From an uncultured Planctomycetia bacterium (lineage in GTDB: Bacteria; Omnitrophota; Gorgyraeia; Tantalellales; Tantalellaceae): DNA of 64,000 bases. The notes under the pieces are model-generated. The model saw only the letters and a list, made by a program, of their open reading frames with translations. It was not told where the DNA came from and ran no database searches. Made by a program: the position numbers and the translations under genes. The stretch covers positions 5,863-69,862 of the forward strand of contig CAZGOG010000005.1 of the NCBI GenBank assembly GCA_964527555.1. Reading direction: 5' to 3'. Of the stretch, positions 13,704-57,753 are shown one piece after another. Every line of letters begins with the position of its first letter. The stretch's first letter is position 1.

Positions 13704-13780
<77 letters not shown>

Positions 13781-15607: not shown

Positions 15608-15738
15608 ACCTGTGAAGCTCCATGGGCTAACGCCCATGGAATCCACAGTTTCAGTCGTTCCGTCAAGCGGAAAGACTGCACCGAAGGGCGTTCATCCATG
15701 CCCTTACGGGCGTGGTTTTCTGGTGCGTGGGTAAAAGC
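15608..15738 (-). repeat. Family-1 structured intergenic repeat, copy A (inverted, degenerate)
   Basis: Reverse complement aligns to copies B-D at about 90%. The outer helix is disrupted by substitutions. Confidence 0.8.
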
Positions 15739-18161: not shown

Positions 18162-18290
18162 TTTTACCCATGCACCAGAAGGCCACGCCCGTAAGGGCGT
18201 GGATGAATGGCCTTCGGTGCAGGGTTCCGCTTGACGGAAAGACTGAAACTGTGGATTCCATGGGCGTTAGCCCATGGAGCTTCACAAGGT
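18162..18290 (+). repeat. Family-1 structured intergenic repeat, copy B
   Basis: About 97% identical to copies C and D. Contains three hairpins and ends 40 nt before the ATG at 18331. Confidence 0.85.
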
Positions 18291-21511: not shown

Positions 21512-21871
21512 ATGATGCAGCAGGATGCTCAAAAAAAATCACCCGAGAAAAAGAAGGCGCCCGGCGCCTCAGATTCCGGAGAAATGGTATACGCGGTGCT
21601 TGCATATCTATGGATTCTCTGCCTTGTTCCGATCCTCATGAAAAAAGAGGACGAATTTGTAAAATTCCATACACGTCAGGGGCTTATGCTTTTTATTGTT
21701 GAAGTGGCGTTCGGGATAATAGCCATCGTGCCGATACTCGGAGCGGTTACCTATATACTCGGGATTCTTATCTGCGGGATTCTTTCCCTTATAGGCATTG
21801 TTCAGGTGTTGATGGGCAATAAGTGGAAGATGCCCCTTATCGGTGAATGGGCCGAGAAAATAAAGATATAG
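21512..21871 (+). CDS. Small membrane protein (DUF4870-like)
   Basis: 'FVKFHTRQG' motif and TM helices. Confidence 0.45.
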   Translation: MMQQDAQKKSPEKKKAPGASDSGEMVYAVLAYLWILCLVPILMKKEDEFVKFHTRQGLMLFIVEVAFGIIAIVPILGAVTYILGILICGILSLIGIVQVLMGNKWKMPLIGEWAEKIKI

Positions 21872-21886: not shown

Positions 21887-22897
21887 GTGAGGCGACAGAG
21901 ACAGATAAAAAAAATTACAATTATTTTTCTGGTCGCCGCTATTTGTATAATCAGCTTTAAAGTTTGTGTTTTTTACAAACAGCGGAGAGTGCCGCCGGCC
22001 GTTGAGGGTGGAGGAGCTCTCGAAGTAGTAAAAAGCTTTTCATTTTCTTCCGGTCAAGATTTGAAAGAATGGGATGAAAAGGTGCTTTCACGCAACGGTA
22101 CCGATTATCAAATAGCAGCGCTTGAGGGAGAAAACAAGGTAAGGGCCGTGAGCGAAGATTCAGCCTCGGCACTTTATTATAAACAGAGGCTTTTTTATAA
22201 GAAAAGTCCGTTTCTCAGCTGGGACTGGAAAGCGGAGAAGTTTCCTCTGCGCAGAGAGAAAGAAGTTCTGGATAAAAAAAGCGAATTTGATTTTGTCGCA
22301 CAGGTATATGTGGTGTTTCATTCGCAGTTTATTCTTCATGCTAAAGCTATCCAGTATGTCTGGACAGAAAGTATACCTAAAGGAACTATTGCGGCGAGCC
22401 CCTACACGAAAAACGTGAAGGTCATGGTGCTGGAATCCGGAGAGTCAGCAGAGTGGAGGCATGAACTGAGAAATATAAGGGAAGACTTTCTGCATCTTTT
22501 CGGAGAGGAACTGACAAGGGATATTGATGCCATAGCGTTTATGACGGATTCAGATAGCACCAATTCTAGCGCTATAGCGTACTACGATAATATCGAAATA
22601 GGGTACATAGAAAAACCCCAAGAGTACTTGCCTGAAAAAGTTCCAGAGAAAGAAGGGGAAGAGCCGGCGAAACCCGTAGAAGAGGTCAAAGAAGAACCAG
22701 CGCCGGGGCCTGAACCAGAAAGACCCGTAGAAGCCAAGGAAGCGGCAGCTTCGGCGGAACCAGTAGAAGAAGTGACAGAAGCGGTAGAGCCGGAGAAACC
22801 CGTAGAAGAAGCGATACCAGAGCCGGAGAAACCCGTAGAAGAGAATAAGACTGAAGTTGTAGAGGAAGAAAAGGCCGAGGCTGTGCAAGTCGAATAA
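21887..22897 (+). CDS. Membrane-anchored hypothetical protein with a C-terminal Pro/Glu-rich repeat tail
   Basis: N-terminal TM helix, globular domain, then repeats '(P)EKPVEE(x)'. Confidence 0.5.
   Translation: MRRQRQIKKITIIFLVAAICIISFKVCVFYKQRRVPPAVEGGGALEVVKSFSFSSGQDLKEWDEKVLSRNGTDYQIAALEGENKVRAVSEDSASALYYKQRLFYKKSPFLSWDWKAEKFPLRREKEVLDKKSEFDFVAQVYVVFHSQFILHAKAIQYVWTESIPKGTIAASPYTKNVKVMVLESGESAEWRHELRNIREDFLHLFGEELTRDIDAIAFMTDSDSTNSSAIAYYDNIEIGYIEKPQEYLPEKVPEKEGEEPAKPVEEVKEEPAPGPEPERPVEAKEAAASAEPVEEVTEAVEPEKPVEEAIPEPEKPVEENKTEVVEEEKAEAVQVE
22650..22880 (+). repeat. Imperfect tandem nucleotide repeats encoding a PEKPVEE low-complexity tail
   Basis: Units such as 'GAGCCGGAGAAACCCGTAGAAGA' recur at 22789 and 22821. 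Confidence 0.6.
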
Positions 22898-28270: not shown

Positions 28271-28299
28271 TTGACATATGTAAGATAATGCGGTATACT
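28271..28299 (+). promoter_or_regulatory. Consensus sigma-70 promoter (TTGACA-N17-TATACT)
   Basis: Read directly from the sequence; about 50 nt upstream of the ATG at 28351. Confidence 0.6.
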
Positions 28300-28350
28300 C
28301 TATATTGTAAAATAATAAAAAGCAAGATATTTAATTTTAGGAGGGGAGAA

Positions 28351-28722
28351 ATGAAATATAGAACAATAATAGAACTCATATGCGAAGCATCGAGTAAAGA
28401 CGATGCGATAAACATCGCTGGCGACTATCTCAGCGGCGACGTTGAATTTGGTGTCCAGATGAAATGCCGCTCGGTGTCTCTCTGGGCGCACAAGATGAAA
28501 AAATACGCCGCATCCTGTGCCATTCTGTTTTTAGTTGTTTCCACGCTTTTTTTGAAAATTTCATCAATGGACGACACTGGCAAGATTTGCGTTTTGGCAA
28601 GCGGTAATTCTCATGGTGCCTATACGGTCGTACCTGCTTTAAAGACAAAGCATGAAGTTGATTTCAAAAAAGAGTGGGATGAGAAGACAGACGAAGTGGT
28701 GATGGATTTCCTTAAAGATTGA
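28351..28722 (+). CDS. Small single-TM protein, paralog 1 of a tandem pair
   Basis: RBS 'AGGAGGGG'. About 65% identical to the ORF at 28914. Confidence 0.55.
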   Translation: MKYRTIIELICEASSKDDAINIAGDYLSGDVEFGVQMKCRSVSLWAHKMKKYAASCAILFLVVSTLFLKISSMDDTGKICVLASGNSHGAYTVVPALKTKHEVDFKKEWDEKTDEVVMDFLKD

Positions 28723-28913: not shown

Positions 28914-29285
28914 ATGAAATACCGAACAGTGATAGAACTAATATGTGAAGCATCGGACAGAGAAGAAGCGACTAACATCTCCGGTGAGTATCTAAGGGGA
29001 AACATTGACTTTGGTGTCGAGATGAGATGCCAGGCTGTGACTCTCCGGGCTCACAGGATGAAAAAGTATACGGCTTCCTGTGCCATTTTGCTCTTGGCTT
29101 TTTCCGCGCTTTTTCTGAAGATCCAGTCTGCTACTAGCGATGCGAAGATCCCTGCTTTGGCATCTGGCGATTATCAGGGTACATATACGGTGGTGCCCGC
29201 GCTAAAGACAAAGCACAAAGCGGACTTCAAAGAAGAGTGGGACGAGAAGAAAGACGAGACGGTGCTGAAATTTCTGAAAGATTAA
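28914..29285 (+). CDS. Small single-TM protein, paralog 2
   Basis: RBS 'GGAGG'. 'MKYRT(I/V)IELICEAS...' is conserved with paralog 1. Confidence 0.55.
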   Translation: MKYRTVIELICEASDREEATNISGEYLRGNIDFGVEMRCQAVTLRAHRMKKYTASCAILLLAFSALFLKIQSATSDAKIPALASGDYQGTYTVVPALKTKHKADFKEEWDEKKDETVLKFLKD

Positions 29286-34488: not shown

Positions 34489-34666
34489 GGTTATGGTTCG
34501 ACTCACTTCGTTCGCTCACCATGAATCTGCGAGGAAAGATATTTTGAACTTAGAACGAAGGAACACCAGGGTGTGAAGGCGTGGACGCGGAAGTTGTGAC
34601 GCCAACAGGCGAAAAAGATGAAAGGGCGGACGTAAGTCCGTGGAGATTCATGAAAGGAGCACGGTC
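34489..34666 (+). ncRNA. Family-2 conserved leader element, copy 1 (candidate cis-regulatory RNA)
   Basis: About 94% identical over 80 nt to 48574-48653, with patchy similarity through to the RBS. Directly upstream of PIN-PhoH. Confidence 0.55.
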
Positions 34667-37485: not shown

Positions 37486-38577
37486 TTATTTAGCCATCGC
37501 GTAAGTTGAGCACTTTTTGTATCCCTTGTAATTTGCTTGTATGACCTCTTGAGCCGGTTTATTTTGCGGCGTAAACTGTCTGTTGTACTCTCCCCCGGCA
37601 TTTATGTTTGTATCCCATTTCCACCAGTATACCCCCGCAAGCCAAGGTTCGTTCCATATGGTCTGGAAAAACGCTTCGTAGCACCTGGCCTGTATTTCCG
37701 GGTCGGCATTTCCGCATGTGCCCCCTTTCCAGGGAGTGTAAGGAGCATGCGGAGTGCTTGCATAACCTATTTCAGTGAAGATGATGGGTTTATTGACCTG
37801 GACTTGCCAGGTTTCGATTTCGTATTTCCACTTTTCCCATCCCTTCTTAAGGTCTTCGATCGTCGGGGCAGATTCATATGTAAGCGGAAAGTAAGCATCT
37901 ATACCCACGTAATCCAGTATATCCCAGAACTTAATGTTCTTGAAATTGTCCCAGTTAGCGGCATAGACGAGTTCTCCCGAGTAGATCTTTTTTACCTCTT
38001 CGATTATTGTACGCCACTCGGAATCTTTCTGTGTGGTAAAGGAGAGCTCCGTTCCCACGCAGAAGAGTTCCACTTTTTCCTTTTCAGCCATCTTCGCATA
38101 GTGAGTTATGTTTTTCTTATATTCCAGGAACCACTTCTTCCAATCATCTTCAGTGTTGAATCCGATATCAGCACGCCAGTAAGTGCCGTCATATTTATCG
38201 AGAAGATCAATGTGGGGTTTGAGCATGACTTTAAGTCCCAGCGTATGGGCGCGTTTGATTGTATGGACTATGCTTCTATCGCTGGGAGTTTGGTCTGTAG
38301 GTTTTATTTCCGTGGAATTATATTGTTCCTGGTATAGCGTCACGCATATTGAGAGGTATTCTACTCCCAGGGACGCGAGTTTCTCCAGGGATTCGTCAGA
38401 GTATTGGGAAGCAAATCTTTCTTTTTCCCAGGTCACGTAACACATACCTTTTTGTGGCAGGAATAGTGTCGTTTCGGAAAATACCGGAAGCACGGGAGAG
38501 AATTGGTATATCGCAAAAACCATTGCGACGAGAACATATAGCGCATTTGTTTTCTTTTTAAGTCGTTGGATCTTCAT
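37486..38577 (-). CDS. Secreted clan GH-A glycoside hydrolase (GH113/GH26/GH5-like TIM barrel)
   Basis: Signal peptide and candidate catalytic motifs 'GTEL' and 'FTEIGY'. Confidence 0.55.
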   Translation of the reverse strand: MKIQRLKKKTNALYVLVAMVFAIYQFSPVLPVFSETTLFLPQKGMCYVTWEKERFASQYSDESLEKLASLGVEYLSICVTLYQEQYNSTEIKPTDQTPSDRSIVHTIKRAHTLGLKVMLKPHIDLLDKYDGTYWRADIGFNTEDDWKKWFLEYKKNITHYAKMAEKEKVELFCVGTELSFTTQKDSEWRTIIEEVKKIYSGELVYAANWDNFKNIKFWDILDYVGIDAYFPLTYESAPTIEDLKKGWEKWKYEIETWQVQVNKPIIFTEIGYASTPHAPYTPWKGGTCGNADPEIQARCYEAFFQTIWNEPWLAGVYWWKWDTNINAGGEYNRQFTPQNKPAQEVIQANYKGYKKCSTYAMAK

Positions 38578-39014
38578 TTTCTTGCCTTCCTTTCCGCAAA
38601 ACCCGTTTTGACAAAGGCAAGACCCTGTGGATAGGCTTACAAAAAGTTAGCAGAAAATGATGATCCAAGAGTTTCAGTTTCGGCAGTCTGACGACCATGT
38701 CCCCAAAAGGGGAGTTAGGCTCATGACTTTGCGTCCTATCCTTTAGGATAGTTTGCCTTTATCGTCTATAAACAAGTTTTTTAAAGAGCTTTTGCGATCT
38801 CAATTATAAGCTTAATGATAAAAAAACAAAAAGCAAGATGGAAAAACAAACTTTTTAATATTTAACTTTGATCGAGATTTTAGTATAATTTAAACGCAAA
38901 ATCAAAGAGATTTCCATAGTTGTAAAATTTCATTTGTCTTTCAGGTACTATTTTTATATAATCTATTGCACCAAAAGTGCAAAAGGTCTTGTATAAAATA
39001 CGCAAGGAGAAAAA

Positions 39015-39494
39015 ATGCATACGAAAAAGCGCGTGACATTAACGCGGGAAGGCCGTGAGAAGATATGTAAGGAACTGGAGTTTCTTAAAGGTGAGAGGCG
39101 CCGTGAAATAGCAAAAGCTCTTGCCGAAGCCAGAGCACACGGGGATTTGAGCGAAAATGCCGAATATGATGCCGCAAAGGAAGCCCAGGCCATGAACGAA
39201 AAGAAGATCGCGCAGCTGGAACATACTTTGATGAATGCGCAGCTCATTGATAATGATGCTATGCCCAAAGACATAGCGCTTTTAGGGGCAACAGTAAAAG
39301 TGGGGGACAAAGACACCCTGGAAGAATTTGATTATATGCTTGTCTCTGAAGAGGAATCGGATCTTGATAGAAACAAAATATCCGTTTCCTCACCGGTCGG
39401 TAAAGCCCTCCTGGGGCACAGGGTAGGGGACATCGTTGAAATAGAAGTTCCGGCTGGGGCCATCAAATATGAAATTTTAAAAATCAGCCGGTAA
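39015..39494 (+). CDS. greA: Transcription elongation factor GreA
   Basis: 159 aa with an N-terminal coiled coil carrying 'DLSENAEY' and a C-terminal FKBP-like domain. Confidence 0.85.
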   Translation: MHTKKRVTLTREGREKICKELEFLKGERRREIAKALAEARAHGDLSENAEYDAAKEAQAMNEKKIAQLEHTLMNAQLIDNDAMPKDIALLGATVKVGDKDTLEEFDYMLVSEEESDLDRNKISVSSPVGKALLGHRVGDIVEIEVPAGAIKYEILKISR

Positions 39495-39620
39495 TTTACC
39501 CATGCACCAGAAGGCCACGCCCGTAAGGGCGTGGATGAATGGCCTTCGGTGCAGTCTTTCCGCTTGACGGAAAGACTGAAACTGTGGACGCCATGGGCGT
39601 TAGCCCATGGAGCTTCACAA
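39494..39620 (+). repeat. Family-1 structured intergenic repeat, copy C
   Basis: Starts at the greA stop codon and ends 25 nt before the phosphoesterase ATG. Confidence 0.85.
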
Positions 39621-48573: not shown

Positions 48574-48751
48574 GCTTATGGTTCGACTCACTTCGTTCGC
48601 TCACCATTAATCTGCGGGGAAAGATATTTTGGACTTAGAACGAAGGAACACCACGGATGTTAATTCGTGGATGCAGAACTATATCGACCGAAGGTCGCAA
48701 AGGGATGAACCACGGACGTGAATCCGTAGAGATTCATAAGGAGAGATGACC
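48574..48751 (+). ncRNA. Family-2 conserved leader element, copy 2 (candidate cis-regulatory RNA)
   Basis: Begins 2 nt after the helicase stop and ends at the yhaM start. Confidence 0.55.
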
Positions 48752-57629: not shown

Positions 57630-57753
57630 TTTTACCCATGCACCAGAAGGCCACGCCCGTAAGGGCGTGGATGAATGGCCTTCGGTGCAGGGTTCCGCTT
57701 GACGGAAAGACTGAAACTGTGGATGCCATGGGCGTTAGCCCATGGAGCTTCAC
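57630..57753 (+). repeat. Family-1 structured intergenic repeat, copy D
   Basis: About 97% identical to copy B. Lies inside the dcw cluster, 12 nt upstream of the ATG at 57766. Confidence 0.85.

Follow-up and report, generated by a model that had tools for sequence, protein, structure and literature searches.

A short intergenic hairpin repeat of Omnitrophota, probably a palindrome-associated element of the IS200/IS605 type

In the insertion sequence (IS) IS608, the transposase TnpA binds subterminal hairpins, with TTAC located 19 nt 5' of the left hairpin and TCAA 10 nt 3' of the right one (PMC3201880). These cleavage sites are read by the four nucleotides 5' of each hairpin foot, AAAG on the left and GAAT on the right, with pairs such as A16:T-3 and A17:T-4 (PMC5934647). 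Palindrome-associated transposable elements (PATEs) have been defined as elements with near-terminal palindromes, but without inverted terminal repeats or target duplication, which are too short for a transposase and form "homogeneous" families of more than 90% identity (PMC3119063). Here, we analyzed an intergenic repeat that occurs four times in a window of 64,000 nt (the whole stretch of DNA studied, from contig CAZGOG010000005.1). We consider it probable (at roughly 80%) that this repeat is a PATE, that is, an IS608-like, non-autonomous member of the IS200/IS605 superfamily of miniature size, in which the left and right IS ends are fused and no gene is present.

Membership in the superfamily is argued by analogy and rests on architecture. 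Like IS608 and ISDra2 (peel-and-paste elements), the repeat is inserted 3' of TTAC, the tetranucleotide used by IS608, and has neither terminal inverted repeats (TIRs) nor target-site duplications (TSDs). As in IS608, similar hairpins are found at both ends, guide sequences follow the same positional rule, and the spacing is asymmetric (15 and 8 nt in the repeat, 19 and 10 nt in IS608). Unlike IS608 and ISDra2, the repeat contains no tnpA or tnpB and measures only 118 nt. Its hairpins differ from those of IS608 in being perfect 8-bp stems with GTAA and GTTA loops, an extra outer helix is predicted around the left palindrome, and the right cleavage site is TCAC instead of TCAA. Comparison with plasmid and phage collections likewise revealed no sequence similarity to known IS. 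The descriptive features of the PATEs of Haloquadratum walsbyi, Halanaerobium hydrogeniformans and Geobacillus stearothermophilus are all found in the repeat, and the distance from end to palindrome is longer on the 5' than on the 3' side, as in those elements. In contrast to published PATEs, the repeat occurs in another phylum, Omnitrophota, and is unrelated to them in sequence; several published PATEs have been tied to a parent IS605-type transposon, whereas none with matching ends was identified here.

Copies, ends and guide sequences

All four copies that the original prediction had proposed for the window were recovered by direct reading, by alignment and by a repeat finder, which returned the same direct and inverted relationships among them. 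A covariance model scan of the window matched exactly these four copies, and a 38-nt core occurs there three times without mismatch, versus zero occurrences expected from shuffled sequences. The focal copy (termed the 18162 copy) occupies 118 nt of the + strand (18168-18285, CCATGCACC...GAGCTTCAC, covariance model score 162.8 bits). It is preceded by TTAC (18164-18167, +), the left cleavage or target tetranucleotide (CL), which is formally outside the element. A second + strand copy of 119 nt (39500-39618, with TTAC at 39496-39499; the 39495 copy) follows the stop codon of greA (39492-39494) and precedes the start of a metallophosphoesterase gene (39645). The third copy (57636-57753, +, 118 nt, with TTAC at 57632-57635; the 57630 copy) is located between mraZ and a 61-aa open reading frame (ORF)/rsmH, and its sequence equals the family consensus. 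Identity among the + strand copies had been put at about 97%; compared with the focal copy, it is 99% for the 57630 copy and 96% for the 39495 copy. The remaining copy (the 15608 copy) was correctly described as diverged and inverted. It lies on the - strand (element 15612-15730, TTAC at 15731-15734, read as GTAA on the + strand), is 92% identical to the focal copy and is antisense to both flanking genes, which are on the + strand. Its left guide is AAAA and there are mismatches in the left palindrome and the outer helix, so that this copy, judged by its sequence, is apparently decaying.

For a wider census, BLAST was combined with a covariance model for which 19 distinct copies were used; fetched loci are designated by L-numbers. 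In this family (family 1), the census counted ~27 different insertion sites and, in addition, a single long variant, with 92-100% identity among the copies. The core measures 117-119 nt in all copies, and the flanks are unrelated among copies on both sides. TTAC directly precedes the element in 22 of 23 readable copies (TTAT in the other one), extended to TTTAC in 19 of 21. At the right end, TCAC forms the last four nucleotides in 22/23 copies and is followed by a variable base; in the focal copy, this right cleavage tetranucleotide (CR) is at 18282-18285 (+), and the end of the element lies 8 nt 3' of the foot of the right palindrome. TIRs are absent, as the ends CCATGCACCAGAAGG... and ...CCATGGAGCTTCAC are not inverted copies of each other. 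No duplicated bases were found in the flanks of 24 sites, and because left TTAC and right TCAC differ consistently in every copy, these tetranucleotides do not represent a duplication either.

Three hairpins per unit had been described on paper, and all three are predicted by RNA folding (minimum free energy (MFE) -69.9 kcal/mol, z = -7.7). The opposite strand (z = -7.2) and the element folded as single-stranded DNA (ssDNA; z = -7.6) gave similar values. The left subterminal palindrome (IPL, 18183-18202, +) has the form CCACGCCC-GTAA-GGGCGTGG with an 8-bp stem, which adds 2 bp to the inner hairpin described originally. The right subterminal palindrome (IPR, 18258-18277, +), originally the third hairpin, is CCATGGGC-GTTA-GCCCATGG, also with an 8-bp stem. 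Both conform to CCAYGNNN-GTWA-NNNCRTGG. They are placed asymmetrically, since IPL starts 15 nt after TTAC and IPR ends 8 nt before the right boundary. IPL is enclosed by the outer helix TGCACC-A-GAAGGCC/GGCCTTC-GGTGCA (18171-18221, +), which is seen in the MFE folds of both RNA and ssDNA; 6 of its 13 pairs are broken in some copies and none is compensated. The remaining hairpin, TTCCG-CTTGA-CGGAA (18225-18239, +), is internal. Together with the outer helix, it is probably leftover internal IS sequence.

The rule by which IS608 guides read their cleavage sites (N1:C-3, N2:C-4 and N4:C-1 paired, N3 non-canonical) was reconstructed from the sequences and pairs in PMC5934647 and applied without adjustment. 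The left guide (GL), the four nucleotides 5' of the left hairpin foot (18179-18182, +), is AAGG in 21 of 24 copies, and the rule pairs it with TTAC as A:T, A:T, G.A and G:C. For the right guide (GR, 18254-18257, + in the focal copy), the family consensus GATG, found in 19/23 copies, is paired with TCAC as G:C, A:T, T.A and G:C. The two ends of family 1 hence show six canonical pairs in the six positions covered by the rule, for which the chance probability is ~(1/64)^2. In the 39495 copy, the right guide is GACG, a change confined to the non-canonical N3. The focal copy and the 15608 copy share the right guide GATT, where the G-to-T change opposite C-1 breaks one pair, and both may, on this sequence criterion, be crippled. 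The reverse orientation was rejected as the active strand, since this would leave only 4 nt between hairpin and cleavage site and would violate the guide rule.

Orthologous sites were compared for the 39495 copy, where relatives share the gene order GH113-greA-metallophosphoesterase. The element is not present upstream of the metallophosphoesterase ortholog in L044, L045, L046 and L053. Three element-free species have 76-78% protein identity. L053 is closer: its metallophosphoesterase belongs to the 90%-identity cluster of the window protein, and the DNA at the 3' end of greA is ~80% identical. Its element-free spacer between greA and the metallophosphoesterase gene measures 37 nt, compared with 31 nt for the window spacer after subtraction of the element (layout TAA-TTTAC-[119 nt]-26 nt). 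Judging from these alignments, the element at this site is an insertion and not a part of an ancestral 5' region. The other members of the 90%-identity cluster were from the same strain, and look-ups of the flanking proteins for an exact empty site within the population returned only copies that were occupied or at contig ends.

A second family, variants and distribution

The window contains a second, related repeat (family 2, the 'D5' repeat), with sizes of 100-160 nt and no Rfam match. One copy (34491-34651, +) consists of TTAT...AACA, a degenerate palindrome...GAAA, a palindrome, and AGAT TCAT. Another (48576-48737, +) is ~81% identical to the first and has an intact internal palindrome CCACGGAT-GTTA-ATTCGTGG. 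Further copies are found in L020 (8468-8626 and 2052-2155). The right end of family 2 (GAAA, CCACGGAC-GTAA-GTCCGTGG, AGAT TCAT) can be aligned with family 1, and by this alignment we take the right ends to be homologous. The family-1 covariance model matched the two L020 copies with E = 5e-05 and 0.009 in a multi-locus search, and family 2 with E = 5e-08 when searched over a 221-nt stretch; the match to the 48576-48737 copy was weak (E = 0.078), and the 34491-34651 copy was unscored. The conserved block of family 2 begins after TTAT in three of four copies, and the internal palindrome CCACGGAT-GTTA-ATCCGTGG has an invariant AACA directly 5'.

Family 2 follows the guide rule with other letters, AACA/TTAT on the left and GAAA/TCAT on the right. 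The N4:C-1 pair is G:C in family 1 and A:T in family 2 at both ends, and 12 of 12 rule positions in the two families together are canonical. This covariation of guide and cleavage tetranucleotides between two families is the most noteworthy feature of the repeat, and the co-changing letters of two co-resident families amount to a natural confirmation of the DNA-guided site-selection rule of IS608. The family-2 part of it should be read as supporting and not as independent evidence, because the choice of features was freer and a distance of ~90 nt would separate the hairpin from the left cleavage site.

Several variants were also informative. The shorter family-2 copy (L020:2052-2155) has lost all sequence between the two palindromes that is present in the longer copies, a palindrome-to-palindrome core deletion which resembles that of HqIRS46 among the haloarchaeal PATEs (PMC3119063). 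Family 1 has a single long variant (L020:4898-5074, 177 nt) with 54 extra bases that form two GC-rich hairpins. This insert is placed exactly at the variable junction of left and right halves, after GGTGCAG, where the short copies also vary (GGG or TCT), and does not occur elsewhere in the sequences compared; the right tail of the variant is diverged (GGCGCTCTAC). The variant may be closer to the parent IS end. In addition, four loci (L016:1-123, L018:13959-14082, L019:7680-7801 and L029:5781-5902) have an identical subfamily sequence with three diagnostic substitutions: two in the palindromes, both compatible with G.T pairing, and a third that disrupts the outer helix. The sequences suggest recent copying from a mutated master. 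The helix-breaking change in all four identical copies hints that the outer helix is dispensable for copying.

For distribution, several collections were scanned for a motif of 19 bases taken from the unpaired linker. In 185,579 species-representative genomes, there were only two chance matches, both inside coding DNA. No match to the element was found in plasmid and phage collections, nor in viral contigs, which were scanned three times (for the linker plus IPR and for each palindrome). In the JGI metagenomes, the linker scan identified 30 loci, 21 of them with true copies, all from a single hypersaline-sediment project (Ga0180431-438) which is also the source of the window's own contig. A protein search with the ORF that crosses the element, aimed at a TnpB C-terminus or distant copies, returned only six near-identical spurious ORFs. 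Named homologs of a neighboring gene were overwhelmingly from Candidatus Omnitrophota; a Firmicutes origin, considered because of gene order and strand bias, was dropped as the homologs are named Omnitrophota. From these searches, family 1 appears to be a high-copy family that is confined to one species-level Omnitrophota population.

Contigs from JGI, ENA and Logan were seen to end inside the repeat in L004, L006, L007, L016, L018, L019, L029, L036, L037, L041 and L043. Such breaks are expected because the element is multi-copy, and the element is a main cause of assembly fragmentation for the host organism. The densest cluster was observed in L037 (1281-3785), where three co-oriented copies are found within 3.8 kb with single small genes between them. 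Readings of this cluster as integron attC sites or as a CRISPR array were rejected, given that R'/R'' core sites are absent and the spacing is irregular.

Transposition model and rival explanations

By analogy with IS608, the repeat would move as follows. Once the top strand becomes single-stranded (for instance, while serving as lagging-strand template), the IPL and IPR hairpins would form and be bound by a dimeric Y1 (single-tyrosine) HUH transposase, TnpA, supplied in trans. The guides AAGG (for the flanking TTAC) and GATG (for the terminal TCAC) would then direct cleavage 3' of TTAC and 3' of TCAC, so that the element is released as a circle of single-stranded DNA, with resealing of the donor. 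The circle would reinsert 3' of another TTAC, again chosen by AAGG, without target duplication. The enzyme, the single-stranded intermediate and current activity are inferred from the likeness in architecture. Insertion in the template of the lagging strand is the direction expected of IS200/IS605 elements (PMC5027513), and the top strand of the repeat is on the G-rich strand in 16 of 23 copies.

Several observations weigh against this model. The minimum-energy fold places GL within the outer helix, where it is sequestered, and this helix also competes with IPL for the two outer base pairs of the latter. Because the helix buries AAGG and borrows these pairs, the active conformation would have to be induced by the protein, or else the helix might dampen activity, which is speculation. 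The hairpins are perfect 8-bp stems, whereas the palindromes of IS608 are imperfect, and the right guide of the focal copy itself (GATT) carries a mismatch. The bias in strand orientation is modest (16:7) and confounded with the direction of the genes; it agrees equally well with gene co-orientation and with lagging-strand-template insertion. Neither an exact empty site nor an excision junction was seen; the empty site of L053 is too diverged (~20%) to show TTAC, with TTTAA in place of the window's TTTAC. Finally, the window and ~428 kb of fetched sequence yielded no tnpA, no tnpB and no full-length IS bounded by these ends in motif scans of the fetched DNA (for Y1 HUH and for the TnpB zinc ribbon/RuvC), Pfam searches of 20 window ORFs, and JGI Pfam calls. 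As this search covered the window and ~428 kb, the missing transposase is uninformative. A scan of metagenomes for the right-end linker likewise returned short copies only, and solo left or right half-elements were not found by BLAST.

The original prediction had left the choice between a recently mobile element, similar to a MITE (miniature inverted-repeat transposable element) or a repetitive extragenic palindromic (REP) sequence, and a transcribed structured RNA. Recent mobility is borne out by ~27 near-identical copies with unrelated flanks, by the TTAC target and by the empty site in a relative. Within that reading, the type can be specified further, as a palindrome-associated IS200/IS605 element and not a TIR-type MITE. 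A classical TIR-type MITE, moved by a DDE transposase (of the Correia, ERIC or RUP kind), would agree with the size of ~120 nt, the intergenic location and the high similarity of the copies. It is contradicted by the termini (CCATGCACC... versus ...GAGCTTCAC), which form no TIR, and by flanks without TSD, where the left TTAC is consistently different from the right TCAC and nothing is duplicated; of all the explanations considered, it is the least probable. A non-autonomous rolling-circle element (IS91/ISCR/Helitron-like, with a Y2 HUH enzyme) would account for the conserved flanking tetranucleotide, for the absence of TSD and TIR, and for a hairpin 8 nt from the 3' end. We find it barely plausible, given that similar hairpins are present at both ends, each with a guide for its own site, which is the signature of IS200/IS605, and that these guides covary in family 2. 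IS91 targets GTTC/CTTG, which does not match the sites of the repeat.

REPs are single palindromes of 20-40 nt with a conserved GTAG head, often arranged in inverted pairs, and they flank a REP-associated tyrosine transposase (RAYT) gene. They and their composites (BIMEs, REPINs) resemble the repeat as high-copy intergenic hairpin sequences that are probably processed by a Y1 HUH enzyme, with a hairpin and an adjacent tetranucleotide. A repeat of this kind could be kept by a single-copy domesticated Y1 enzyme (a RAYT) instead of an IS200/IS605 transposase. The HUH Y1 chemistry and the hairpin-plus-tetranucleotide logic would be identical, no IS-borne tnpA was found despite the many copies, and the repeat is intergenic, of high copy number and restricted to a single lineage. 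Such a repeat is nevertheless quite improbable here, as the unit is asymmetric, 118 nt long and equipped with distinct ends and distinct guides, has no GTAG head and no inverted doublet, and no RAYT-like or Y1 gene was seen beside any copy.

A functional RNA module that acts in cis (as 5'-UTR leader, attenuator or mRNA stabilizer) and is kept by selection upstream of genes would be supported by the very stable predicted structure, by GNRA-type loops, and by copies within operon-like strings (greA-metallophosphoesterase, mraZ-rsmH), where transcription is probable. Placement is a mixed case. All three + strand copies of the window had been noted to point the same way as the next gene, at 40, 25 and 12 nt from its start codon. 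This orientation is correct; measured from where the element really ends (...GAGCTTCAC), the spacing to the start codon is 45, 26 and 12 nt. The smaller values of 40 and 25 nt stem from the use of slightly later element ends. The co-orientation has little informative value, being close to the null expectation because virtually all genes of the window are on the + strand, where GC skew is also positive along the whole window. The census included ~25 sites with readable flanks. In 11 of these, the copy ends within 60 nt of a co-oriented start and in 4 at 77-300 nt upstream, 7-8 copies (including the 15608 copy) are antisense or convergent, and two are at contig ends. The consistent 5'-UTR placement described for the window thus extends to 11 of ~23 scorable copies, which end 3-60 nt before a co-oriented start with an intact ribosome-binding site, but not to the approximately one third that are antisense or convergent to their neighbors.

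The other tests of such a module were negative as well. For the original structure (32 pairs, 19 distinct sequences), we found 0 two-sided (compensatory) changes, 6 wobble cells and 20 broken pair-cells, and the covariation score showed no excess over shuffles, with power limited by the low divergence of the copies. The missing covariation is weak evidence against the structure, and the pattern resembles that of young selfish copies. Mixed orientation and position together with absent covariation is the pattern that the original prediction had named as speaking for a selfish element, and the census and the pair test largely show it. The opposite strand folds equally well. Rfam 15, searched with the whole window, gave no match to the repeat at gathering score, and the initial reading had likewise not recognized it as a known RNA family; when the element was searched at E <= 10, the best matches had E = 4.4-4.7. 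One of these, to RAGATH-26 over GACUGAAA-UGUGG, was dismissed as chance level (E = 4.7). No promoter-like or terminator-like site was found in or next to the focal copy. The downstream genes are, as noted earlier, unrelated (a protein of 80-94 aa without Pfam match, the metallophosphoesterase, and the 61-aa ORF in mraZ-rsmH), orthologous sites are element-free in four relatives, the linker motif had no true copies in the 185,579 species-representative genomes, and protein-level matches were near-identical only. The repeat shows none of the tested hallmarks of a conserved regulatory RNA. A leader, terminator or stability module as the reason for its existence is not supported, given the mixed orientation, the lack of covariation and of an Rfam match, and the element-free orthologs, and we consider a selected cis-acting RNA very improbable. 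Effects of a -70 kcal/mol structure on neighboring transcripts are plausible as a secondary by-product.

A joint reading combines the mobile element with further roles: an omega-RNA-like guide, a co-opted intercistronic module, or an unknown mobilizing activity without intact cognate TnpA. It seems unlikely, though less so than the rivals above. The structured right half and its flank may be transcribed as an omega-RNA-like guide, which is used in trans by a nuclease of the TnpB/IscB type encoded elsewhere. Published PATEs "often encode omega-RNAs" that are usable in trans (PMC10055086), and the right half of the repeat is, as in the omega-RNA (reRNA) of TnpB, a structured right end that extends to the transposon boundary. 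Compared with omega-RNAs, this part is only ~60 nt long (~115 nt in L020:4898-5074), it has no Rfam or omega-RNA match, and there is no tnpB in the sequence examined. If such a guide existed, it would target the resealed TTAC donor site, and the element would be retained. Copies just upstream of ribosome-binding sites may also have been co-opted as intercistronic modules of RNA stability or translation, and proliferation without an intact cognate TnpA (compare the Haloquadratum puzzle) would imply an unknown mobilizing activity.

Read as a PATE, the repeat adds a new Omnitrophota family to a known type of element and does not constitute a new regulatory RNA. Full-text searching of open-access literature gave no report that links Omnitrophota to IS200/IS605-type derivatives or MITE repeats. 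For annotation, the hairpin repeats should be masked as mobile DNA and not catalogued as regulatory RNA. If a partner TnpA or TnpB were found, it would supply a compact system for TTAC targeting whose hairpin is perfectly paired. Current understanding is not overturned by the element.

Other features of the window

The window and the fetched loci contain further features of interest. Magnetosome-type genes are indicated by Pfam matches to MamF_MmsF (window 21515-21871) and MamI (L047:19787-19972), which suggests, from sequence similarity, that the host population is a magnetotactic lineage. A c-di-GMP-I riboswitch aptamer (RF01051, 77.7 bits) was identified at 38679-38767 on the - strand, upstream of the GH113 gene (37486-38577, -). 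A single tRNA-Arg(CCT) gene is located at 13704-13780, just downstream of a sigma-70 gene.

The window contains other repeats as well. Direct repeats spaced by 563 nt are explained by tandem paralogous small genes (28288-28722 and 28914-29285, ~123-144 aa, MKYRT[IV]IELICEAS...) in a low-GC (39%) stretch, and degenerate tandem repeats of 33-87 nt at 22645-22857 encode an acidic, Glu/Pro-rich segment of a DUF3047 ORF (21887-22897).

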